A stretch of DNA of 62,052 bases, counting the filler. It is 8 parts of 8 records of this genome, joined end to end, with 100 filler letters (N's around TTAATTAATTAA, not from the genome) between each part and the next. Parts side by side here need not be neighbours in the genome. Positions count along the whole stretch, not along the records: positions 5,485 to 19,498 come from SRR31156797_68843; 7 more parts are not named here. One strand, written 5' to 3'. The translations under genes were made by a program, and so were the position numbers. The notes beneath the pieces are model-generated. The model was not told where the DNA came from and did no database searches. It saw nothing but the letters and a program-made list of their open reading frames with translations. Positions 5,385-19,598 of the stretch are shown here, one piece after another; the first letter of the stretch is position 1, and each line of letters begins with the position of its first letter.

Positions 5385-5563
5385 NNNNNNNNNNNNNNNN
5401 NNNNNNNNNNNNNNNNNNNNNNNNNNNNTTAATTAATTAANNNNNNNNNNNNNNNNNNNNNNNNNNNNNNNNNNNNNNNNNNNNCATTGCGCTTTTTACC
5501 GAGATGTATGGATTCCCCAAATTACTATCGATTAAACGACTACAACTTATTAAGGATTATGCT

Positions 5564-6028
5564 ATGAAAAATTTCATAAAAACACTGTGTTCCACCATCG
5601 TTGTTGCCGCTGTAATGTCTTCAACGATATTTGCTGAAAAAGTATATGCCCAAACTGATGAAAACCAATCCATGGGCGGTACCATGATGATGGGTATGAT
5701 GAGCCGAGAACAGATGGCTGATATGTCTGAGCACATGCAAAAAATGCTCAAAATAATGGACAAAATCAAAGGCGAAACCGATCCGGAAAAACGTCAGCAA
5801 TTAATGCAGGAACATATGCGGGCTATGCAGGAGGGGATGCAGATGATGAATAAAGGTATGCCTATGCAAGACAGTATGAAAATGACTGAACATCAGGGTA
5901 AAGGCATGTCGGATAAAATGGGTGAGCCAGACATGATGAAGCGCATGGACATGATGGAAGAGCGCATGGGTATGATGCAAATGATGATGGGACAGATGAT
6001 GGAGCATGAATCTGAAGCGAAATATTAA
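5564..6028 (+). CDS. Secreted Met-rich helical protein, putative periplasmic Cu(I)/Ag(I) sponge
   Basis: RBS AAGGA before ATG 5564; signal peptide ending VYA; about 36 Met in about 125 mature residues; located in the copper island. Confidence 0.7.
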   Translation: MKNFIKTLCSTIVVAAVMSSTIFAEKVYAQTDENQSMGGTMMMGMMSREQMADMSEHMQKMLKIMDKIKGETDPEKRQQLMQEHMRAMQEGMQMMNKGMPMQDSMKMTEHQGKGMSDKMGEPDMMKRMDMMEERMGMMQMMMGQMMEHESEAKY

Positions 6029-6051
6029 CAGCACTACTTTCCCTGTGTCTA

Positions 6052-6082
6052 TTGACCTTCCCCTAAGGGAAGGGTCTATAAG
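6052..6082 (+). promoter_or_regulatory. CueR-type (MerR) promoter/operator
   Basis: TTGACC, 19-bp spacer TTCCCCTAAGGGAAGGGTC, TATAAG; dyad ACCTTCCC...GGGAAGGG resembles the E. coli copA CueR box. Confidence 0.85.
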
Positions 6083-6133
6083 TTCTCTTAGGTTGTGTCA
6101 TAAACACAATTTTGTAAGGATGCCTGAGAGGTT

Positions 6134-6526
6134 GTGATGCTAAAACCGTTGCATACAATTTGGTTAACCGGACTCACACTGTTTGCTTTATTGCTCTCTA
6201 GTGTCTCTGCCAGTGCCTCTCTTAATATGCCGCTCAAAAATAGGGGCGATTCTTTAACTGTATCGTCTCTTTCACATGATGAGCATTTGAAGTGTTTGTC
6301 ATCACAACTCGAATCAATAACGACCGAAACAGATTGTCATGATTCAACCAATGATATGAATCCAGAGCATCAGTGCTACCCTTCGAGCTGTGCAGCTAGC
6401 GCTCTGCTGATTTCTCAAGTCATCATCACAAACTATCAAACACCCCAACGTATCCCTTTCTTCAGGGAAACTGCTGAGTATGTCAACTCGGTAACAGGCA
6501 ATTTGTATCACCCTCCAATAGTCTGA
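6134..6526 (+). CDS. CopL/DUF2946-like exported Cys/His protein ending LYHPPIV
   Basis: Hydrophobic N-terminal signal, DCH...HQCYPSSC metal motif, C-terminal xYxPP motif; first gene after the CueR-type promoter. Confidence 0.55.
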   Translation: MMLKPLHTIWLTGLTLFALLLSSVSASASLNMPLKNRGDSLTVSSLSHDEHLKCLSSQLESITTETDCHDSTNDMNPEHQCYPSSCAASALLISQVIITNYQTPQRIPFFRETAEYVNSVTGNLYHPPIV

Positions 6527-6671
6527 TTCCTTCTTAACGGTTAATACCCTCGTCAACAGTGGCTTTGACATGCTTATCTTGCATGACGTTTGTCTGTATA
6601 ACCGGCTCAATTTCGTTATTAGATAACGAGCATTTTTGCAGTATCTATCAACTCGAAAAGGAAAATCATCA

Positions 6672-7313
6672 GTGAATATTCGAAAACCTTTAGCTTGCTT
6701 TGCTGCCTTGCTACTTGGATTGAATTCGATCACAGCATTCGCTCATGAAGGTATGCATGACTCAGAGAGGGACTCTGGTTTGAAAGAAGTGAACCAAGAC
6801 GTACCAGCATTAGCACTGGATTCTGCTGAATTTAAACAAGCCCAAAACCTTTTTCGTGCGGTTGGTGGCTATGGCTGCACCGCATGCCATGGTCTGTTTG
6901 CTCAAGGGGGCGGTAACGTGGGGGGAAATATAAGAGACCATTCACTAAGCCAGATAAATTATGCCCTTCAGAATGAGCCAACAATGAAGCTACTGAATAA
7001 TGCACTTAGCGATGGAGATAAATATGCTCTGGCTGGATATCTCAAAGCTTTGGGTAAATTGGAACTCATTGAGTGGACGATTGATGGAGAGGTTTCATAC
7101 ACCAAGGTGGAAATTGATAAAGAATCAGATAATCAACTGGTTATATTCAACAAAACTTTTGACTCTATCGATTTGTCTTTGATGCCGATTGGTAATAATC
7201 ACACACTTTCAATCGAACCCTATGCAACAGAATCGTATACGTGGAAAGCACAACCCGGTGAATACAGATTGCAATACAACCAGCATGTTCTTGATATGTC
7301 CTTCAGGTTCTGA
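6672..7313 (+). CDS. Monoheme c-type cytochrome with C-terminal cupredoxin-like beta domain
   Basis: Signal peptide (AFA-HEGMH), CTACH heme motif, candidate axial Met (EPTM); C-terminal LVIFNKT...YTWKAQPGEYRL pattern. GTG start after AGGA. Confidence 0.7.
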   Translation: MNIRKPLACFAALLLGLNSITAFAHEGMHDSERDSGLKEVNQDVPALALDSAEFKQAQNLFRAVGGYGCTACHGLFAQGGGNVGGNIRDHSLSQINYALQNEPTMKLLNNALSDGDKYALAGYLKALGKLELIEWTIDGEVSYTKVEIDKESDNQLVIFNKTFDSIDLSLMPIGNNHTLSIEPYATESYTWKAQPGEYRLQYNQHVLDMSFRF

Positions 7314-7339
7314 ATAAAAGGAAAATTGACGATAGTCTC

Positions 7340-7371
7340 TTGACCTATGTGTTGCACACAGGTTTTAAACT
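7340..7371 (+). promoter_or_regulatory. Second MerR-type promoter/operator (20-bp spacer)
   Basis: TTGACC-TATGTGTTGCACACAGGTTT-TAAACT with dyad ACCTATGTG-N3-CACACAGGT (1 mismatch), upstream of small ORF-merR-copA. Confidence 0.75.
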
Positions 7372-7409
7372 CAAAATAGAAACATAGATAAAGATGTAAG
7401 GAGTTCGTT

Positions 7410-7523
7410 ATGAGTTGTTGTAATAAAGCGCCTAATGGCGGAACCAGTGACCCTAAATTATTGTTGAAAGTGACTTTAGGTATGTTAGCGGTCATTGTGT
7501 TGTTAGTTTTTTTATTTGGTTGA
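7410..7523 (+). CDS. 37-aa single-TM microprotein with N-terminal Cys-Cys
   Basis: RBS TAAGGAG; MSCCNKAPNGGTSDPKLLLKVTLGMLAVIVLLVFLFG*; first ORF after the MerR-type promoter; below the ORF-track cutoff. Confidence 0.65.
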   Translation: MSCCNKAPNGGTSDPKLLLKVTLGMLAVIVLLVFLFG

Positions 7524-7580
7524 TTATCCTTAGGAATTTTGTGCTATCTCACTATTTTGTTGCCATTCAGAGGGTTAAGT

Positions 7581-8027
7581 ATGCTGACAACTGAAATTGC
7601 CCGGACAGTCGGGGTTACTGCGGAAACGGTTCGCTTTTATACCAGAAAAGGACTGATCTCTGCGACGAAAGACCCTAGTAACGGCTATAAAATTTACCCA
7701 CCGAGTGCTGTGGATAGATTGCGGTTTATTAGTCATGCGCGAAGTATTGGCTTTAGCTTAAGCCAGATTGAAGAGATCATAGAATACTCTCAGCAAGGAA
7801 ATTCTCCCTGTCCGAAAGTACGGAAAATGCTGAGTGATAAAATATCTGAGACACAACAAAAAATTAAAGAATATCAGATGCACCTGGCTGTTATGGAAGA
7901 AACTTATTCCGAGTGGGTGCATGAACCAGACATGACTCCTGACGGGAAGGCGATATGCTGCCTGATTGAAGACTGGTCAGATAAACATCCATCGATTAAC
8001 TCTCAGGAGGCAAAAAATGAAGGTTAA
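7581..8027 (+). CDS. MerR-family metal-responsive regulator
   Basis: HTH EIARTVGVTAETVRFYTRKGLI, NGYKIY, ARSIGFSLSQI; Cys at start of dimerisation helix (SPCPKV) and C-terminal ICCLIE. Confidence 0.9.
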   Translation: MLTTEIARTVGVTAETVRFYTRKGLISATKDPSNGYKIYPPSAVDRLRFISHARSIGFSLSQIEEIIEYSQQGNSPCPKVRKMLSDKISETQQKIKEYQMHLAVMEETYSEWVHEPDMTPDGKAICCLIEDWSDKHPSINSQEAKNEG

Positions 8028-10737
8028 AGAATATTCTCTTGCGTTATCAGGTGTCAGTTGCGGCAATTGTGTTACAAAGATCGTTTCCGCTTTAAGGGAA
8101 AGCGATCCTGATATCTCGCTGGTTATTAATAATAGTAAAGATAAAACAGATCTTATTACCACATTGGAACCAGAAAACGCGATACAAATTATTTCCAGCA
8201 CTGGATATGCTGCGACTTTGCCCGTAATTCACCAATACGAAACAACATTGGCTAACGTTTCTTGCCAAAACTGCGTTAAAAAAATCACGTCTGGCATTAG
8301 AGATGTGGATAACAACGCTGATGTGTCAGTGGACATTTTGGCTCAGCGGTTAGTTGTCAATAGCCATGTCAGTGATTCAGAGGTGGAACGTATTTTACTG
8401 GAGTTAGGATACAGTGGCCGAAACGGAGAGCGGAATACCGCTGTTCCCGATGTGGCTGAATCTAATACGACCAGTGTTCATATGGATTTATTGGCTCAAA
8501 AGCAGACGGTGAATCTGGCTTTAGTGGGAGTGACATGCGCCAGTTGTGTCAATACCATTGAGGGGGCTCTGACAAATCTGGAAGGTGTTGAATCAGTGGA
8601 TGTCAACTTTGCCAACCGTACAGCGACCGTTCAGTCTCATCAATCAACACTATCACTTATTCAGGCGATTCAGGCGGTTGGTTACGATGCCAGTGAAATC
8701 GTTGATGCTGATGAGGCGGAAGATATCAAAGCAGAGCAGGAAGCCCAAGAGTATCGGTTTAAAATCAGGCAAAGTATTATCGGTCTGGGACTGGGTATTC
8801 CATTGATGGGTTATGGCCTGCTGGGTGGCCCTATGAACGTAAATACCCTCTCAGAGCAAGCTCTCTGGCTTGGTATCGGTTTGTTGACATTGGTTATTTT
8901 GTGGCGAGCCGGCAGGCATTTTTTTAAGGGAGCCTGGAAAGCGTTCTTAAATCGTAACGCCAACATGGATACCCTTATTGCACTCGGCACTGGGACGGCC
9001 TGGCTCTATTCAATGGTGGTAGTTTTAGGACCTCAATGGTTACCTGAAAGTGCCAGACACCTCTATTTTGAGGCGACCGCAATGATAATCGGTTTGATCA
9101 ACCTTGGGCAAGCGCTTGAGGTTCGGGCTAGAGGCAGAACGTCTCAGGCTATCAGACGGTTACTTGATCTGAGAGTAAAAACTGCGGTGGTGATTCGTGA
9201 CGGACAAGATGTCTCCGTTCCTGTCGAACAGGTGATGCGGGGTGACAAGATCCGGGTAAGAGCAGGTGAGAAAATTCCTGTGGACGGTGTGGTCACTGAT
9301 GGGCGTACGACGATAGATGAGTCTATGTTAACCGGGGAACCGATTCCCATAGAGAAGCAACCGGGCAGCCAGGTATCCGCAGGCACCATAAACGGTCAGG
9401 GAAGTTTTGTGTTTGAAGCGAAAAAGGTAGGTAGTGACACTGTTCTTGCTCAGATTATCAGCATGGTCTCCAATGCGCAGAACTCGAAACCTCCTATTAG
9501 TCACTTAGCCGACAAGGTTTCTGCCGTTTTTGTACCAACAGTTATGATCTTATCCATTATGACTGCTTTGATATGGTACAACGTTGGTCCGCAGCCAACT
9601 CTGGCCTATATGATTGTTGCCGCAACCTCAGTACTTATTATCGCTTGTCCCTGCGCTCTCGGGCTGGCGACGCCAATATCTACCATGATTGGAGTTGGGA
9701 AGGCGGCAGAGTTTGGTGGTTTGATCCGCAACGGAGAAGCCTTACAGCGGGCAAGTGAATTGGATGTTGTCGTATTGGATAAAACCGGGACCATCACACA
9801 GGGTAAACCTGAGGTCACAAACTTCCGTGTCTTTTCGGGTGAAGAAAATATTTTGTCGCTGGTTGAGACTTTGGAAAAAGGCTCTAACCACCCATTGGCT
9901 CAGGCATTAACCAGCTATGCGCAACACCACGCTCAATCTGGAGAGTCACCACAAGTATCCGAGTTTGAGTCCTTAACCGGTATGGGAGTGCAGGCTCACT
10001 ACAACGGGAAAAGATTGCTCCTTGGTAACGATAAGCTTATGAATCGGTTTGGACTGAAAACAGAGACCGTGAGTGAATACGCCATCCAGTGGGAACAAGA
10101 TGCAAATACTGTGGTGTACTTTGCTGTAGATAACGATATTCAGGCTCTTTTTGGTATCAGCGATCCTATAAGAGAAGATGCCCGAAGTGCGATTGATCGT
10201 TTTCACCAACAAGGTATTCATGTCGTTATGCTAACCGGAGATAACGAAAATACGGCTAGGGCGGTTGCGAGCTTGTCCAATGTTGACGAGTTTTACGCAG
10301 GGCTAATGCCAGAGGATAAGCTTAGCTGGATTAAAGAGTTTCAGGTACAGGGAAAAGTTGTCGGCATGGTTGGCGATGGGATCAATGATGCTCCGGCACT
10401 TGCTCAGTCCGACGTTGGGTTTGCTATCGGAAGCGGCACCGATGTTGCCATTGAAAGTGCGGATATCACTCTGATGCGAAGCTCTCTGCATGGTATTTCA
10501 GATGTTATAGGGATCAGCAGTGCAACGATGACAAATATCAAACAGAACCTCTGGGGGGCGTTCATTTACAACTCCCTGGGTATACCGGTCGCAGCAGGAT
10601 TACTATTTCCATTTACGGGCTGGCTTCTAAGTCCAATCATTGCAGGAGCAGCAATGTCGCTGTCATCTGTTACGGTCGTCACTAACGCAAACCGGTTGCG
10701 CTTATACAAGCCTGGCCGTTCTATCAGTAATAAATAG
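8017..10737 (+). CDS. copA: Cu(I)-translocating P1B-1 ATPase with three HMA domains
   Basis: GVSCGNC, NVSCQNC, GVTCASC; TGE, CPCALGLA, DKTGT, HP, GDGINDAPAL, YN..GIP, AMSLSS. Confidence 0.95.
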   Translation: MKVKEYSLALSGVSCGNCVTKIVSALRESDPDISLVINNSKDKTDLITTLEPENAIQIISSTGYAATLPVIHQYETTLANVSCQNCVKKITSGIRDVDNNADVSVDILAQRLVVNSHVSDSEVERILLELGYSGRNGERNTAVPDVAESNTTSVHMDLLAQKQTVNLALVGVTCASCVNTIEGALTNLEGVESVDVNFANRTATVQSHQSTLSLIQAIQAVGYDASEIVDADEAEDIKAEQEAQEYRFKIRQSIIGLGLGIPLMGYGLLGGPMNVNTLSEQALWLGIGLLTLVILWRAGRHFFKGAWKAFLNRNANMDTLIALGTGTAWLYSMVVVLGPQWLPESARHLYFEATAMIIGLINLGQALEVRARGRTSQAIRRLLDLRVKTAVVIRDGQDVSVPVEQVMRGDKIRVRAGEKIPVDGVVTDGRTTIDESMLTGEPIPIEKQPGSQVSAGTINGQGSFVFEAKKVGSDTVLAQIISMVSNAQNSKPPISHLADKVSAVFVPTVMILSIMTALIWYNVGPQPTLAYMIVAATSVLIIACPCALGLATPISTMIGVGKAAEFGGLIRNGEALQRASELDVVVLDKTGTITQGKPEVTNFRVFSGEENILSLVETLEKGSNHPLAQALTSYAQHHAQSGESPQVSEFESLTGMGVQAHYNGKRLLLGNDKLMNRFGLKTETVSEYAIQWEQDANTVVYFAVDNDIQALFGISDPIREDARSAIDRFHQQGIHVVMLTGDNENTARAVASLSNVDEFYAGLMPEDKLSWIKEFQVQGKVVGMVGDGINDAPALAQSDVGFAIGSGTDVAIESADITLMRSSLHGISDVIGISSATMTNIKQNLWGAFIYNSLGIPVAAGLLFPFTGWLLSPIIAGAAMSLSSVTVVTNANRLRLYKPGRSISNK

Positions 10738-10746
10738 GAGGTTGAT

Positions 10747-10827
10747 ATGTGGGTGAACGTAATAGGTCTTACAGCCATTGTACTGATCATCTGGTGGTTT
10801 TGGGGGAAACAACTCGGCAGAAAATGA
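10747..10827 (+). CDS. 26-aa membrane microprotein (N-terminal anchor of CupA-like cupredoxins, no domain attached)
   Basis: RBS AGGAGG straight after the copA stop; MWVNVIGLTAIVLIIWWFWGKQLGRK*. Confidence 0.55.
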   Translation: MWVNVIGLTAIVLIIWWFWGKQLGRK

Positions 10828-10879
10828 CAATATTGTCATCATTACCGTCCGGTTACTGACAGGTACTGTAGGCTAAGAT
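10824..10879 (+). promoter_or_regulatory. CusR/CopR box 1 with -10
   Basis: Perfect palindrome ATGACAATATTGTCAT (10824-10839); TAAGAT 34 nt downstream; precedes the 10915 ORF. Confidence 0.85.
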
Positions 10880-10914
10880 CAGCACTAGATAGAGTAAGTA
10901 ATTTGGAGAAAGTT

Positions 10915-11238
10915 ATGAAAGCTAACAACAAAAATCACAGTTGCCATTCGGGACACGGCGAGCACAAAGGCCATGGTTGGATGATGCTTCTATGTGTACT
11001 GTTTATGGTCGGAATACCGTTCCTGGTTCTCTCCTCAACCATGAGTTCGTTTAGTCCGTCTCTGCTTGGTACCGCACTTGTGCCTCTGATTTTATGTCTG
11101 GTCATGCACGGGGTGATGATGAAATTTATGATGCCAGGAAGTACAAAAGATCAGGATGCTTCTCAAGAACCGCAGGATAAGAAAGAGGTGCAAATGGTAG
11201 AAGATAAAACGAATGATGGTGGTCGATTTAGCGCTTGA
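10915..11238 (+). CDS. DUF2933-like His-rich two-TM membrane protein
   Basis: HSCHSGHGEHKGHGWMMLLC, two TM segments, LCLVMHGVMMKFMM motif typical of copper-locus small membrane proteins. Confidence 0.65.
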   Translation: MKANNKNHSCHSGHGEHKGHGWMMLLCVLFMVGIPFLVLSSTMSSFSPSLLGTALVPLILCLVMHGVMMKFMMPGSTKDQDASQEPQDKKEVQMVEDKTNDGGRFSA

Positions 11239-11338
11239 TTTATCTCATTCAAAGCAACGAATCAGGAAACCAAGATTTCTAAGTCTTTTGATAACGCCGT
11301 ACAACTTTAAATTTAAAAAAGAGAATAAGGATTGAATA

Positions 11339-11632
11339 ATGAAAACTGTTCTTACAACAATGCTGATCGGTAGCCTTATTTCTGCACCAATATTTGCACA
11401 GGATATGGTAAAAGACAGCGCAACCGAAGGTTCTCATAATCAGCACCACGGTTCGGAGAGTAACACTTCTTCATCCGCTGAAATGCCGATGATGGATATG
11501 ATGCAGAACATGGAAAATCACCAGCAGATGATGTCGCAGATGCATGCCATGATGACTGAAATGCATCAGATGATGTCAGAGAAAGGTTGCGACAAAGCAA
11601 TGGGAAAAAATATGATGGAAAAAGAAAGCTAG
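11339..11632 (+). CDS. Second secreted Met/His-rich periplasmic protein
   Basis: Signal peptide (IFA-Q), HNQHH and MPMMDMMQNMENHQQMMSQMHAMMTEMHQMM. Confidence 0.7.
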   Translation: MKTVLTTMLIGSLISAPIFAQDMVKDSATEGSHNQHHGSESNTSSSAEMPMMDMMQNMENHQQMMSQMHAMMTEMHQMMSEKGCDKAMGKNMMEKES

Positions 11633-11676
11633 TTACCGATTCCGTACATAATTTCTCTTTATCTACTTCAAATTTA

Positions 11677-11709
11677 GCTCGTGCTTATGGCCGGGCTTTT
11701 TCTTTTTTT
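11677..11709 (+). terminator. Rho-independent terminator
   Basis: AGCTCG...CGGGCT imperfect stem followed by a T tract. Confidence 0.5.
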
Positions 11710-11810
11710 CAAAATTTTAATTGATATTTAGCATGATATAGATCATCTGAATATTTTGTAACTTCATGTATAACCATCTGATGTGTCGAATGTTTTCTGG
11801 ATTAATATAA

Positions 11811-13763
11811 ATGTTTAATAACTTGAAACTTGGTCAAAAGATAGGCTTGGGTTTTGCGACTCTTATGGTATTTCTTTCCATTATAGTGATGATGAGTATT
11901 TTCACGCTGAATAAGGCTGATTTGGGTATAGAATCGTATAGTCGCCTTAGTGAAGTGTCTGACTTTAGTTATCATATTCGAAATAAATTGATTGAAGTGA
12001 AAGAAGATACACGAGCGTACTTATTGTCAAATAGTGATACAGACATTCAACGCTACAACAAACATATCTCGGAGTTGGACAAAGCCCTTCAGATGCACTT
12101 ACCCTCATTCGACATGAAAAATGCAAAAGTGCTTAACGACATATCAAATAAACTGCATCAATATGATGAAATATTTTCAGATGTAATCAACCAAACAAAA
12201 CAGAGAAGCGATGTTTTGAATGGTGTCCTTGAACCGAGTGGTGAGCATATGTTCAGTACCATGCGTCAACTTGCAGTCAAGGCTTATGATTATGGTGACA
12301 CAGACTCTGCGTATCGGGCATCTCTGGTTCAGGAAAAGCTGCTATCAAGTCGGATCAATGTGTTGAAGTTTCTACAGTCAAGCAGTGATGAAAATTACGA
12401 TATAGCCTTGAAAGATATGCAAGAGTTGAAAGGCGAAGCTATGGCGTTAAAGAACCTGTTAACCGAGGATTCATTGAAAGGCCTCCTTACTCAGTATCAC
12501 ACGTCACACAAATCGTATCTTCAAGCAATGAGTTTGATTCAACAGGCCGAAGTTGCCCGAAAAGAATTGATTCAAGTTCGCCTTAAAGGTTTAGAAACTG
12601 AAATAGAAAAAGACATATTAGAGATTCAATCTACCGTCAATGATAGCAAGAGAACAACCGAACTGGCATTGAAGTCAACAACAAAGCAGAGTATCCAGTT
12701 TACTACTGCTATTTCATTTATTGCCATTTTAATCGGTACTGTCTTGGCGTACTTGATGACTATCTCGATTACTAAGCCCATTTTGAAAGCTATCGATGCA
12801 GCAGATAAGCTTTCTCAGGGAGATTTATCGGGCTGCTCTGACGAATCAAGTGTTCGAAAAGATGAGGTCGGAACGTTACTCAATGCGATCAATGTTACGA
12901 CGATACGATTGAGAAGTATGGTCAGCACGATTGCTGAAGCCGGTAAAGAGCTGAATCAAACATCTTCGGTGATGATCAATCTGACGGAGAAATACTCCAA
13001 CAGTATCCAGAGACAAGAACAGGAAACCGATTCCGTAGCAACTGCAATGACGGAAATGACAGCGACCGTAAAAGATGTTGCTCAAAATACTTTAATGGCT
13101 GAACAAACAGCAAGTGAAGCAAGGGAGCGAGCAACGAAAGGTTATATCATTGCAAAAGAGACCACGCAGATAATCAATAAGCTAGCTCAATCCGTTGGTG
13201 ATTCTGCTGAAAAATTATCTGTAGTGGAAGTTGAGTCCGGTGATATTGGCAATATATTAAATGTTATCTATGAAGTCGCGGAGCAAACGAATCTTCTCGC
13301 TTTAAATGCGGCCATTGAGGCAGCAAGAGCGGGGGAACATGGTCGTGGTTTCGCGGTTGTTGCTGACGAAGTAAGGCTACTTGCACAGCGAACTCGAGAG
13401 TCAATCACTCAGATACATACTATCACTGAAAAACTACAACATGGTATCCAAGATGCTGTTCAGGCAATGAACAATGGTAAAACTCAAACCGTGTCCAGTG
13501 TTGAACAGGTTAGCCTCATGGGCGACGCACTATCGGCTATTGAAGAGTCCGTGTCGGTTATTTCTGATATGAATACTCAAATTGCTAGTGCTTCTGGTCA
13601 GCAAAGTATTGTCGCGGATCGTGTCGGTGAACATATGAAATCCGTTGGTGAAATTGCTCGTAGAAATACAAACACGATTATGGATATCAACTCGTTATGT
13701 AGTGATGTCGGTAGTTTATCAATTCAACTGAGTAAGCTGATCAGTCAGTTTAAGCTTTCATAA
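11811..13763 (+). CDS. Methyl-accepting chemotaxis protein (helical periplasmic sensor, HAMP)
   Basis: Two TMs, [44 protein letters not shown]. Confidence 0.95.
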
Positions 13764-14151
13764 ATCAGCAAATTATTTGGATGGTGCCTGGTTGAGCTGA
13801 GATGCATAAAAATTCGCTTTAATTAAAAAGAGACGTTGGGTAGCTGAGCCACATGAAATGAGGTTGATAGGTTGTTCAGGTTGGTTCTCATATATTGAAG
13901 TGCTGTGTCTGCGCGGGCTTACCGTGGCACTCTTTCTTTCTCTGCCATTGAAGAGACAAGGAAGTTCAACAAATATGAAATTTGGTGCACTCTTCCTTAG
14001 GTGTATTGCGAATAATTCATTTTAGTACTACTTGTTTCTTTGGTGAAAAGATCGAACCAGATTTTTCGTATTCCTATCTTCTGTCGTTATTATTCATCCT
14101 CTCCTATGTTTAATCTCGTATTAGAGATAACGTTTATTAAGTAGTGATAAT

Positions 14152-14233
14152 AAAAAAAGCTGAGCCTAATGCTCAGCTATAAATGATAAATAAAATAATG
14201 AACCTCAAATGTTACCATATGAGTAAGCAGTGG
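14152..14233 (-). ncRNA. Candidate CusR-induced sRNA A (about 80 nt)
   Basis: Lies between the minus-strand CusR promoter and the terminator AGCTGAGC-ATTAG-GCTCAGCT-TTTTTT; no RBS-led ORF inside. Start inferred from the -10. Confidence 0.55.
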
Positions 14234-14239
14234 ATCTCT

Positions 14240-14294
14240 AGTATAAATGTAATATAATGAATTTTTCCTGACCAGAGAATGACAGATTTGTCAT
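14240..14294 (-). promoter_or_regulatory. CusR/CopR box 2 with -10, leftward
   Basis: Minus strand ATGACAAATCTGTCAT (14294-14279), N6-GTCAG, then TATACT exactly 33 nt after the box. Confidence 0.75.
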
Positions 14295-14577
14295 GGAATT
14301 AACAATAAATATAAGATATAACGCCATTGTTCTTAATCATTAATTACAGAAAAATTAATAGGATGAGAGGTAAAGGTTAAACTTTACGATGCAGATGATG
14401 TTTTGTTGTCTTTTATCTATAAACTTATGATTTTTTTGTTTTTCATCCCAAGTGTTGCTTTTACTAATATTACATTCCCAAATATTTTCCTACCGCAATG
14501 AATTGCTTGTATCACTATTTTCTATATTTATCCCTGTGCTGGGAATACTTAAAATATAAATAGCAAAGGATATTAAA

Positions 14578-14632
14578 ATTACACGAATGTCATTTTTGAG
14601 TCATGTTTATGACATGAATGAATTGTTAATTT
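14578..14632 (+). promoter_or_regulatory. CusR/CopR box 3 with -10, upstream of porin
   Basis: ATTACACGAATGTCAT (degenerate), N6-GTCAT, TAATTT 33 nt after the box. Confidence 0.6.
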
Positions 14633-14951
14633 CTCCGTTATAGAAATTAGATGAATGATTACCTATTCAAAAATATGCATGGTTAGAATAAATTAAGCAG
14701 CTTTGTCTGCTTAATTATTGTTTGAGTAGAAAGCAGCGTGATATTGCTTTGCCAGTATTTTAATTTTGTTGAGTGGGGCGATACCATAATATTATATGGC
14801 ATATTTTTCTTTGTCTCCCTCGTGACTTTGTTAGTACTGGCATGCAATTAAATGGCCCCTCTCTTTCTGTAGTAGGGGGTAGGAATGTCGAAAATCATAT
14901 GAGAATCGATAGATTTTTGTCCTGTTTCGACGACACAAGGAAATTGCATAA

Positions 14952-16298
14952 ATGATTGAAAAAAAATTAAAAATGGCTGCTCCTTTGGCAGTGGTACTAA
15001 TTACAGCTCCGGCACTGGCTGATGTCGCTTCACCATCGCTAGATGGTTTGAAGGGTGAAATTGATCAACTGACCGCAGAAGTCGCTAACCTAAAAAATGA
15101 CCAATCTGCTATCAGGCTTAATGGTTATTACCGTATGCAAGGCACGGCGGAAAGCCTCGATGAAACTGACGATAATAGTAGTACTTGGGTTGATCAGCGT
15201 CTGCGCATGAAGGTCACCGGCGACCTGAATGAAAATGTTACTGTGGTTTGGTACGGTGAGTACGATGCTCCCTTTGGTGAAAAAGGTAGTAAGACGGTCG
15301 CAGGTTCAGGTGGCAAACTCAGCTCTGATGGCGTTGGTATTGAGACAAAAAACGCTTACGTTGATTTTAGACTACCGAATACGGACTGGAAGGTACGAAC
15401 GGGTATTCAAGGGTATGGTTTTGGCAAATATGAGAGTTTCGTGACTGATGATGACATGAACGGCATCTCGTTTTTGGGCAATATAGACATGGTCAACCTG
15501 AGCGGGGGTTGGTTTAAATGGGATGAAGGAGAAAGAGATTCGTCAGACGACGTCGACTTCTACGTGTTGAATGGTGAGTTAAACCCTAACGATAATCTAA
15601 GTTACGGTTTTACTGGAGGCTCAATCAACAACAGGAACGAAGATGCCATTAATGGCACGGCTGCTCGAACGGACGATATTTATCTTGGATCCTACGTTGA
15701 CTACACTTATGGTGACATGGCTTATAGCGGTTCTGTACTCTATAAGATTGCGTCAGGAATGGACTCAAATGCTTCTGATGGCGAAGCATTCATGTTAAAT
15801 CTCTATGCTCAAAAGCATTGGACTGGCGGTTATATTAAAGTCCACGGTATCTATATTCCTGCTGACGACAGCAGTAATGGGACAGATCGTTTTGCTGAAA
15901 ACAATTCAGGTTATGAGCTCAACAGTAGTAACCTGATGATCTTTGGAACCGATTCATACTACAACAACGGCTCGCAAGGAGGTAAGGCAGTTTTAGATGC
16001 AGCTTACCAAGGGTACGGCTTGTTGGGACTGATGCTTTCTGGTGATCAGATGCTAGAAGATGACTACTATGTTAAGTATGGCGCTGGTTACTTCAGAGTG
16101 GCTGACGATGCCCCTCAGAGTGCTTCACAGGCAAATGGTTCGAATCTTGGTGCTGAATTGGCTGCACAGTTTGGCAAAAAATTTGCGGGTATATATGACT
16201 TGAGTTTGCGTGGTTCTTACGGTTTTATGGGGGATTTCTATCAAGAAAGCTCTGAGGACACATACAAGATTGTTGCTATGCTCAATGTCGTATTCTAA
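14952..16298 (+). CDS. Outer-membrane beta-barrel porin, deltaproteobacterial (OmpJ-like) type
   Basis: Signal peptide, short coiled coil, WVDQRLRM, GEYDAPFG, SSDGVGIETKNAYVDF, alternating beta strands, terminal Phe. Confidence 0.75.
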   Translation: MIEKKLKMAAPLAVVLITAPALADVASPSLDGLKGEIDQLTAEVANLKNDQSAIRLNGYYRMQGTAESLDETDDNSSTWVDQRLRMKVTGDLNENVTVVWYGEYDAPFGEKGSKTVAGSGGKLSSDGVGIETKNAYVDFRLPNTDWKVRTGIQGYGFGKYESFVTDDDMNGISFLGNIDMVNLSGGWFKWDEGERDSSDDVDFYVLNGELNPNDNLSYGFTGGSINNRNEDAINGTAARTDDIYLGSYVDYTYGDMAYSGSVLYKIASGMDSNASDGEAFMLNLYAQKHWTGGYIKVHGIYIPADDSSNGTDRFAENNSGYELNSSNLMIFGTDSYYNNGSQGGKAVLDAAYQGYGLLGLMLSGDQMLEDDYYVKYGAGYFRVADDAPQSASQANGSNLGAELAAQFGKKFAGIYDLSLRGSYGFMGDFYQESSEDTYKIVAMLNVVF

Positions 16299-16330
16299 TT
16301 GAATCATTAAATACAATTAATTTTATTATG

Positions 16331-16358
16331 ACGGTCAAGCAGTCGCTTGACCGTTTTT
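16331..16358 (+). terminator. Rho-independent terminator after porin
   Basis: ACGGTCAAGC-AGTC-GCTTGACCGT-TTTT. Confidence 0.85.
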
Positions 16359-16567
16359 CTGCGTTATCAAATCATTCAAGATTATTATTTTATTGAATCC
16401 AGGATGTTCTTCTCATGAGTTTTAATCAAAGTCGAGCCTTATGGATAACCTTTTTCTTATTAATGGGTTAACCGATTTTTACCATTCGGACCGTTTCCAT
16501 TGTTAATCTTTCCGTGTATAGCGTTGATATCAACCAATGAGTTCAACTCATTAACTTTTAAGGAAAT

Positions 16568-16622
16568 ATGACAAAATTGTCATCTTAAAGACCAGAGTTC
16601 GACACCATGGCACCATTAAGAT
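16568..16622 (+). promoter_or_regulatory. CusR/CopR box 4 with -10
   Basis: ATGACAAAATTGTCAT (16568-16583); TAAGAT 33 nt downstream. Confidence 0.85.
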
Positions 16623-16663
16623 GTGATCAAGTTACAAATATCAACGCAACAAAAGGAAATCCA

Positions 16664-17035
16664 ATGAAACTGATGAAAACGACTTTTACGACAGCAGCCT
16701 TGATTTTACTAAGTGGAAACGTCCTGGCAGGTCAGTATATTAATACTTATGGCAATTTTGAGGAAAGACTGGACACTCGCACATTTCACACCGAAGCGGT
16801 CTCTTCAAAACAAGAAGCCTATAAACTGGGGTTACAGCAACTACATGAACTTGACAATAGCTCGTCACAAGAGCTCAATCATAAATTATTGGTCACTGGC
16901 GACAGTAGTAATGATATCCATTTGAATAAAAACGGTTATGTAACCGTACAGGAATTTATGAACGATGCTGGCCAGATATTGTACAAAGGTGAAGTTAACG
17001 TCAGCTATCACTACGCAGAACGTCGTGACGATTAA
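16664..17035 (+). CDS. DUF3316-like secreted protein (Vibrio-enriched family)
   Basis: RBS AGGA, signal peptide, SKQEAYKLG...YVTVQEFM...YKGEVNVSYHY. Confidence 0.7.
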   Translation: MKLMKTTFTTAALILLSGNVLAGQYINTYGNFEERLDTRTFHTEAVSSKQEAYKLGLQQLHELDNSSSQELNHKLLVTGDSSNDIHLNKNGYVTVQEFMNDAGQILYKGEVNVSYHYAERRDD

Positions 17036-17211
17036 AACGATTAAGTAACAGTGACTCGAAACTCTAGCGTTATAGGGTAGTCGAGTCATTGTTATTTTTT
17101 TGCGCTAAATGACATCGGTTGAACAGTCATTCGGCAATATCCAATTCAAGTTATTTGAGCTAGTTTGTATAATAACGCTCTAAGTACATAACACTATAAT
17201 ATTTATTAGAA

Positions 17212-17895
17212 ATGAAGCTATTAATTGTTGAAGACGAGCCTAAAACAGGCAGTTACTTAAAAAAGGGATTTACTGAGTCAGGCTACGTTGTTGATCTTGC
17301 TTATGACGGCGTCGATGGACTCTACCAGGCGACCACCAATCATTATGATCTCATTATATTAGATATCATGCTTCCTAAGTTAAATGGTTGGCAAGTGTTA
17401 CAAACAATGCGAAGCAGTCAATTAGATACACCAATCATTATGCTTTCTGCAAAAGATCAGGTAGAAGACAGGGTTAAGGGACTGGAGTTGGGAGCGAACG
17501 ATTATGTCGTCAAACCTTTTGCTTTTGTTGAGTTGCTTGCCCGGGTTAAAAATGCGTTAAGACACCAAAACGGGCAAGTGAAGAATGATGCGACCTTAGC
17601 TATCGCTGATTTATCTCTGGATCTTTTGAAGCGGACAGTTCACAGAGGGGGGGACGCGATCCTTCTGACCGCCAAAGAGTTCTCTTTATTAGAACTCTTT
17701 TTGCAAAGACGTGGCGAAGTTCTGTCGCGTTCACTCATCGCCTCTTTGATATGGGATATGAACTTTGATAGTGATACCAATGTTATTGATGTGGCGGTCA
17801 AAAGGTTGCGATCTAAAATTGATAAACCTTTTGATGTTAAATTAATTCATACGGTGCGTGGTATGGGTTATAAACTCGATGATTCTGTAGAATGA
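17212..17895 (+). CDS. cusR: Heavy-metal response regulator CusR/CopR
   Basis: [63 protein letters not shown]. Confidence 0.9.
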
Positions 17896-19229
17896 AGCTG
17901 AAACTTAAAAACTCAATGGCAACAAAGCTTATTGTCATGTACATGGCGTCTTCATTTGTCGTCCTTACTTCATTTGCTTTAATTGTTCAGTATTCAATTA
18001 AACATCATTTTTATCAGCAAGATTACAAACGGCTCGACAACTATTATCATACGGTTTTTTCCTCGTTTGATAGTTTAAGTGATAATGCTATTACAGCGTT
18101 AAAGGCCGAGTCGGTTTCCTTGTGGGTGTTAGACCGGAATGGCATGACTGTGTTAACAAACACGACGTTATCTCTGCCCGAGAATGCAAAAAAGCTAAAA
18201 TCGATGGAATGGACGGTCGGTGGACAAACATATCGCACTTTCCTGTTTCAGCTAAAGCATCCACAATACGGCGCCATTGTACTTGGACTCAATATTGACC
18301 TCCATCTCTTATTTATTAGTCAATTTAATATTGTTCTGCTGTGGACGTTTGTCATAACGAGCGTGATATCAGGGGTGTATGCGGTGTTTATTGTTCACAA
18401 AGGCCTAAAGCCTCTGCACGTTTTACAGAAGTATCTGAGTAAAGTTAGCCCTAATCGGCTGGATATCAGAGTTCCGGTTGAAACACTTCCTATAGAGCTA
18501 GTGCAACTGGTTGAAACACAAAATGAAATGCTGAAACGCTTACAGCATGGCTTCAACAGGCTGAGTGAGTTTTCTTCCGATATTGCACACGAACTCCGAA
18601 CTCCGTTAACCAACATTATGACCCAGACGCATGTCACGTTATCTTCAAAAAGAACAGTGGAGGAATATGAAGAAATACTCCTTTCCAATGTGGAGGAATT
18701 GGAAAGGCTGAACAAGACCATACAAGATACACTTTATTTGGCTAAGTCTGAAAATCATTTACTTCATACTAATAAAGAGATGCTACAATTAGCAGAAGTT
18801 ATCAGGCCACTGCTTGAATTTTATGAATTTATGGCTGACGAAAAGGAAGTTTGTTTAGAGTTACGTGGAGATAGCGAGCAGTTTGGGGATAAACAGATGC
18901 TGCAACGTGCAGTGGGAAATATTATTTCTAACGCGCTGAGGCATTGTGATGTTGGCTCTGTGGTATCCATACAGCTTTCAGAAGGTGAAGAATACAATTC
19001 TATCAAGATAAAAAATACCGGAGAGACAATTCCGGAAAGTTCTTTACCCTATCTGTTTGACCGATTTTATCGAGCAGATAAATCCAGACAGCATAGCAGA
19101 AGTATTGGTGCGGGGCTTGGTTTAGCTATTACCCGATCTATTGTCCAGGCGCATGGTGGTGAAATCACTGTATCTTCCAGTGAAAGAGTCACTGAGTTTA
19201 CTCTGACAATGAAAAAGGGTGAGGTCTAA
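17892..19229 (+). CDS. cusS: Heavy-metal sensor histidine kinase CusS/CopS
   Basis: HF..QD periplasmic motif, [31 protein letters not shown]; overlaps the cusR stop. Confidence 0.9.
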
Positions 19230-19316
19230 ACGAGCATAGTCAGATTTTTTCATTGAATCTGTTTTGTTGCGTGTATTGTTGTCTAGCTTAAACTAAGAAC
19301 CTATTGACTCCGCTTC

Positions 19317-19371
19317 ATGACATTATTGTCATATTTCAGTCAGATAAAAATCAGTATGTATCCTTTATTCT
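19317..19371 (+). promoter_or_regulatory. CusR/CopR box 5 with -10
   Basis: ATGACATTATTGTCAT (19317-19332), N6-GTCAG, TATTCT 33 nt after the box. Confidence 0.8.
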
Positions 19372-19377
19372 AACCTT

Positions 19378-19474
19378 GTTCTCATAATTAATTGGTTCGA
19401 TGAGAACGTTAAAGCAATAGTACTTTTTTCATTTCTTATTCATTTTATGCTGAGTGTCAACTCAGCATTTTTTT
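19378..19474 (+). ncRNA. Candidate CusR-induced sRNA B (about 97 nt)
   Basis: 5' stem GTTCTCAT/ATGAGAAC begins at the predicted TSS; U-rich linker; terminator ATGCTGAGT-GTCA-ACTCAGCAT-TTTTTT. Confidence 0.55.
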
Positions 19475-19598
19475 GCTCTCCAATTACTTCCCAATAGANN
19501 NNNNNNNNNNNNNNNNNNNNNNNNNNNNNNNNNNNNNNNNNNTTAATTAATTAANNNNNNNNNNNNNNNNNNNNNNNNNNNNNNNNNNNNNNNNNNNN

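Follow-up and report, generated by a model that had tools for sequence, protein, structure and literature searches.

The window analysed here (62,052 nt, the whole stretch of DNA) is made up of unrelated contigs joined through N spacers (e.g., 19499-19598), with GC contents from ~40% to 63%. One of these contigs, at 5485-19498, is a copper island. Its genes are a merR/cueR-like gene, copA, an MCP gene, a porin-like gene, a DUF3316 gene and a two-component system of the cusRS type (Table 1). The region of interest, candidate RNA B with its promoter (19317-19474), lies at the end of the contig and is followed by an N spacer after 19498; ORFs spanning 19543 onwards belong to a different contig and not to the island of B. 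The continuation was taken from homologous islands: the island is present in a Vibrio genome, G001, at 98-99% identity to the window contig, and has relatives on two named Vibrio plasmids, L001 and L002. A prior sequence-only reading of the locus had looked to the DNA beyond the contig end; in G001 and L001 that DNA holds a lamB gene, ~265 nt beyond B, and then a third sibling RNA, C. The gene hfq is present in all five of the genomes that carry the RNA family.

Table 1. Features of the copper island around candidate RNA B (window coordinates unless another source is named)
Feature	Position	Strand	Basis or remarks
cusRS-type heavy-metal two-component system	17212-17895, 17892-19229	+	TIGR01387 and TIGR01386, over cut-off
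CusR/CopR-type palindrome (box) of B	19317-19332	+	matches the E. coli CusR palindrome as quoted in PMC11195947
Rest of B promoter	19339-19371	+	GTCAG 19339-19343; TCA 19351-19353; -10 TATTCT 19366-19371
Candidate sRNA B, ~97 nt	19378-19474	+	fold, conservation, no conserved ORF
5' hairpin of B	19378-19407	+	siblings D, E and F are predicted to have comparable 5' hairpins
Unpaired U-rich element, predicted seed	19423-19434	+	complementary to AUG-AAA-AAA-G starts; mean unpaired probability 0.86
Intrinsic terminator of B, which may end cusRS as well	19447-19474	+	terminator scanner
Sibling A	14152-14294	-	box 14279-14294; -10 14240-14245; RNA ~14235-14152; 5' CCACUGCUU element
Island porin-like gene	14952-16298	+	divergent from A; CusR-class box 14578-14593
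Sibling C	G001 C1:3935567-3935727; L001 16983-17147		downstream of island lamB, beyond window contig end; truncated in L002

Several observations concern the surroundings of this island and others like it. The DUF3316 gene (16568-17035) is followed by a very stable hairpin with a U tail (17050-17100, z -7.3), so that cusRS probably has its own promoter. DUF3316 genes lie repeatedly behind CusR-class promoters, adjoining cusRS, across the Vibrionaceae (loci L024-L044), and this recurrence suggests a copper-related role for the family. A second copper island of G001 is devoid of the RNAs; both islands of this genome are flanked by ORFs that we take to resemble Tn7-type transposition genes (C1:3295000-3325000 and C1:3944000-3952000). 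On another Vibrio plasmid (L028, 1-17352), a cusRS copper island adjoins a Tn7-like transposon that carries cas genes of type I-F.

The promoter of B has the composition of a CusR regulon member, with the palindrome at activating spacing and a linked cusRS; its upstream region reads as a CusR-class promoter with a sigma-70-type -10 and does not have the form of a sigma-E promoter. Transcription is predicted to start near 19378. The full pattern, box-N6-GTCAG-N7-TCA-N12-TA, has exactly two matches in the window (19317 on the + strand and 14294 on the - strand), and two matches are found in 0 of 100 shuffles. The identity of promoter geometry between A and B, on which the sequence-only reading had relied, is thereby borne out; as a mark of sRNA genes it fails, because coding promoters share it. 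The fetched loci contain 46 distinct box-plus-TCA sites, and in 38 of them the -10 falls at an identical offset. An ORF follows 28 of the sites, and a terminator that has no ORF before it follows 15: the box/TCA/-10 spacing is general to CusR-class promoters and not specific to sRNAs. GTCAG is present at all 15 non-coding sites and at 4 of the 28 coding sites, many of the loci having been fetched by the GTCAG pattern itself.

The RNA body folds into a 5' stem, an open linker and a terminator (19378-19474; z -3.57, with 0 of 200 shuffles as stable), and all of the elements originally noticed at B (box, GTCAG, TCA, -10, 5' stem, linker and terminator) are present, beyond chance in shuffles. The likeness of the 5' stem to that of A holds to the extent that both RNAs have one, but the stem of A is much weaker than the matching stem of B. 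The U-rich 17-mer at 19424-19440 is unpaired with a mean probability of 0.88 and is indeed the reverse complement of the MKK-like start region to which it had been proposed to be antisense. The U-rich seed, TTTTTCAT, is kept in B, C, D and E and not in A and F. The terminator stem (19447-19468) and its U tail are called by the scanner, and the GCTGAG-N6-CTCAGC pattern occurs in 0 of 100 shuffles. Across 11 copies, 93% of terminator cells are paired, and both partners vary in 3 of the 8 pairs, a count that is inflated by the relatedness of the copies and in which F is misregistered in the alignment. With its own promoter, a Rho-independent terminator with a U tail, a length within 50-250 nt and no conserved ORF, B has the anatomy of an Hfq-dependent trans-acting sRNA.

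B belongs to a family. Pattern and model searches of 285 Vibrio genomes recover full units from five of them. G001, G377 and G383 have three apiece, G345 and G285 one apiece. G285 also has a truncated C and a remnant of B, an arrangement that is the same in L002, which is counted with it; plasmid L001 carries three units, the maximum for any carrier. The units have in common the promoter, a variable 5' hairpin, a U-rich linker and a terminator of the GCTGAG..CTCAGC type. A has no upstream gene on its own strand, and G377 contains a tandem pair whose second unit has no upstream gene to terminate. The existence of the standalone and tandem copies argues that the family does not simply consist of gene terminators. 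That B might be only the cusRS terminator, one of the doubts raised against it at the outset, is argued against in this way for the family, even if the hairpin of B may also end cusRS. The elements and their arrangement thus read as those of an independent CusR-class transcription unit, paralogous to A and part of a family wider than the pair originally proposed.

The family is new and confined to one Vibrio copper-island lineage. Model R1 scores 60-95 bits on full members; its best scores elsewhere are 23.7 bits among 280 other Vibrio genomes, 27.9 among 40 of 128 other Vibrionaceae and 25.3 among 150 order-level genomes, with a limited sensitivity to distant members. Neither the RNAs nor the barrel genes described below are found in the fetched DNA of other CusRS islands (L020-L031), and viral contigs yielded no homologue of the RNA family. 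Of 17 metagenome matches, 13 are attributable to chance and the remaining 4 are copies of this same island. No Rfam family fits: there are no hits in the window at gathering score, and weak hits of VrrA, SorY and OmrA-B on the siblings are generic terminator matches. Since all units lie within versions of one island lineage, the copies are not independent.

Within that lineage, the promoter and RNA body of B are conserved like coding DNA. Between G001 and L001, 58 of 62 promoter nucleotides and 75 of 81 aligned RNA nucleotides (with one 14-nt indel) are identical (93-94%), compared with 67 of 86 and 121 of 165 in the flanks (73-78%) and 280-282 of 300 at coding ends. Taken together, promoter and RNA have 133 of 143 identities and the flanks 188 of 251 (Fisher p 3.5e-6).

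The target scan covered the start regions of 2160 ORFs in 2.48 of the 5.2 Mb of G001, in blocks chosen to include known porin genes; it employs a simplified IntaRNA-like model with approximate loop energies and non-standard ORF calls, and G001 may not be the host of the window. (Whole-RNA duplex energies were uninformative for targets and were discarded.) As a control, host VrrA ranks porin C1:1510577 first of 2160. A also ranks this porin first, at -15.1 kcal/mol against -11.1 for the next gene; E2 and F place it third and D fifth. The MicV/RybB-like 5' element of A is predicted to pair over 12 nt with the ribosome-binding site of this porin, and A, D, E2 and F are each predicted to pair with the orthologous site in other hosts (the OMP loci of other hosts numbered 38, of which 9 with no clear start were set aside). 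Of 101 Vibrio genomes, 77 have the site. Its sequence complements the seed common to MicV, VrrA and RybB, a seed that binds the ribosome-binding site of ompT according to PMC6694218. A matches 8 of 10 nt of that seed, given there as CRCUGCUUUU, at its 5' end, and D and F match 6 of 10; B lacks it. What makes A, D and F strong predicted porin binders is the CCACUGC element, and this too is absent from B. Porin targeting is well predicted in these models for A, D, E2 and F, and A presents the stronger modelled case than B; C, which ranks the porin 723, has little porin preference. Calling this pan-Vibrio porin OmpT-like is our extrapolation, because structure and motif comparisons gave it no name (no solved-structure hit below E 0.06; no motif hit in the supplementary files of PMC6694218).

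The best match of B in the same scan is flgO (-13.2 kcal/mol). None of its top 25 among the 2160 ORFs is a porin, and its porin duplexes reach only about -6 to -9 kcal/mol. With three alleles of B, host lamB takes ranks of 40, 45 and 3, an OmpU-like porin takes ranks of 44, 50 and 11, and the island lamB falls to 1131-1504. The rank of B for the pan-Vibrio porin is unstable (65-393). Outer-membrane proteins are favoured as a group: ten from G001 have a median rank of 348 for B (p 7e-4; 377 for VrrA), although without accessibility terms they fare worse, at 68-1251. The linker of B favours 39 OMP starts over 500 background genes, with a median percentile of 0.15 against 0.43 for shuffles; 0 of 40 shuffles match it on four of five measures, and 2 of 40 on the fifth. 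Of eight natural U-tract pre-terminator controls (from 122 terminators), only VrrA equalled the linker on the top-5% count and one equalled it on the median, probably via tied scores. A perfect 10-nt complement of the seed lies at the start of 4 of the 2160 genes, two of which are porins (host lamB at C1:2043702 and the OmpU-like porin at C2:959272), an enrichment that is modest and post hoc, 56 genes already starting with an 8-nt complement. MKK starts are enriched among exported proteins generally (33 of 56) and the seed is consequently not porin-specific. An extended target of 17-18 nt with at most two mismatches is matched in G001 only by B's own strand, a control pattern giving similar counts, so the specific 17-nt target originally envisaged is not supported. 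Porin mRNAs are still the likely target class; for B itself, which lacks CCACUGC, porin targeting is only moderately supported.

The island also contributes barrel genes of its own. The porin-like gene, preceded by a long 5' region of ~300 nt after its CusR-class promoter, encodes a protein of 448 aa with a weak NF033939 match below cut-off and an AlgE-like barrel lead (Atlas); it has no Pfam hit and no solved-structure hit. This gene occurs in exactly the 5 of 285 Vibrio genomes that have the RNA family, a LamB gene adjoins the island in each of them, and both barrel genes have CusR-class promoters. The co-occurrence of RNAs, porin-like gene and island lamB suggests that host porins may be swapped for island ones; linkage in one lineage can also explain it, and the swap accordingly stands as a hypothesis. 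Its fullest form is tentative and, in our estimation, doubtful: a copper-triggered module in which up to three CusR-induced siblings would seize the host's sigma-E sRNA site on porin mRNA together with MKKA starts (host lamB, OmpU-like porin), B silencing host lamB, and in which the two island barrels, a LamB whose start eludes the RNAs and the AlgE-like porin, would be induced and replace what is lost.

These observations can be assembled into a mechanism. B is probably a transcribed, CusR-dependent sRNA gene; that its product represses host porins has slightly the better of the chances. The account that we favour, with a moderate degree of confidence, is that B is a copper-induced Hfq-type sRNA of ~97 nt that blocks translation of host porin mRNAs at AUG-AAA-AAA starts. 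Phosphorylated CusR would switch on B together with siblings A and C, and Hfq would bind the U tail of B. B would then cover the start codon of MKKA-type porin mRNAs, host maltoporin lamB and the OmpU-like porin being the best candidates, and A, D, E and F would cover the ribosome-binding site of the pan-Vibrio general porin. Less general porin would mean less copper entry while the island-encoded barrels are induced. That porins are a route of copper entry, taken for granted in the sequence-only reading, receives mixed support (PMC7558416).

B could alternatively be a decaying paralogue of a porin-silencing family, kept mainly as the cusRS terminator and with little target activity of its own. 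The scanner calls no other terminator between cusS and B, and shuffles are as stable as the hairpin that follows the cusS stop; the terminator of B may double as that of cusRS. Changes that fit decay are also seen: L002 has lost the promoter and 5' half of B and kept only its terminator end, the U-tract seed is apparently missing from one variant (runs X1 and X21), changes at 19381 and 19449 break stems in the X4 allele, and the duplexes of B, which is without CCACUGC, are weak. Against this, box, -10, 5' stem and seed, none of which a terminator requires, are as well conserved as the figures above indicate, and the linker surpasses shuffles on OMP starts; we consider the decay reading unlikely. 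(Just after the cusS stop, 19238-19255 is a short GTCAG/T-tract/CATT echo, at which the L002 deletion appears to start.) A rather unlikely reading accepts B as a true CusR-induced sRNA but makes its main targets exported proteins with MKK starts (FlgO, TolC, periplasmic binding proteins), so as to relieve envelope load. The top rank of flgO fits it, as do the 15 MKK starts among B's top 100, the rank of tolC among the six best with the L001 allele, and a lowering of Vibrio alginolyticus motility upon CusRS activation, as stated in the review PMC13660019. It accounts less well for the better ranks of barrel-like genes for B (median 477 of 2160, p 0.006) than of other signal-peptide genes (958), and for the convergence of four siblings on one porin.

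Two further readings, B as an attenuating 5' leader to the lamB-like gene that follows it and B as a small-peptide gene, are very improbable; they were rejected on the separate lamB promoter and on ORF variability. That lamB follows on the same strand in G001 and L001 is what commends the leader, a possibility already foreseen by the sequence-only reading as one that would undo it; the idea is weak, since ~265 nt separate B from lamB, which is served by a box/GACAG/TCA/-10 of its own. That promoter persists in L002 and G377, both of them without B, and other copies of the RNA are in tandem or point away from genes. The short ORFs of some copies speak for a peptide, but neither their frame nor their length is conserved (B has one of 6 aa, the L001 allele one of 20 aa), and that of B has no ribosome-binding site.

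If the favoured account of B as a porin-repressing sRNA is confirmed, copper two-component systems will have gained a post-transcriptional repressor arm, and a mobile island will be seen to remodel the outer membrane of its host. It would also provide a testable parallel for the unexplained Hfq requirement when OprD is lost through CopR, would allow the role of general porins in copper entry to be tested directly, and would bear on the co-selection by metals of lower permeability in marine vibrios. The roles of sRNAs in the copper response are described as little studied in PMC7563307. No CusR- or CopR-activated sRNA was found in the literature searched, mostly outside subscription papers, and term counts in two sRNA reviews (PMC13501541, PMC10335731) return no mention of copper.

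By analogy, B probably works like OmrA/OmrB, and its siblings like MicV/RybB, while being members of neither group. OmrA/OmrB (RF00079), activated by EnvZ-OmpR, resemble the B family as redundant siblings under an OmpR-family regulator that repress OMPs (PMC13501541); the B family differs in having a CusR-type box in place of OmpR sites and in residing on a mobile copper island, and the OmrA-B model (cut-off 40 bits) gives no match on B and 21.5 bits on one sibling. The sigma-E sRNAs MicV, VrrA and RybB repress porins at the ribosome-binding site, and the top predicted target of A is also that of host VrrA, but B has neither a sigma-E promoter nor the CRCUGCUUUU seed. The VrrA model (RF01456, cut-off 50 bits) does not match B at E 10 and scores 26.6-28.5 bits on two siblings, as on unrelated loci (21-31 bits); the host VrrA loci lie elsewhere than the siblings. 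The precedent invoked by the sequence-only reading, CopR/CzcR and OprD in Pseudomonas aeruginosa, stands in so far as a porin is lowered there by a two-component system that senses metal, and Hfq is needed for this; it departs from the model for B in that the effect is described as transcriptional, with no repressing sRNA identified in PMC5083921. In gene content the island resembles the mobile cus/cop/sil islands, in which copA, a cueR-like gene, cusRS and cusCBA-like genes travel on plasmids and chromosomes, as here; the present lineage goes beyond that inventory in its non-coding siblings and in a pair of barrel genes behind CusR-class promoters.
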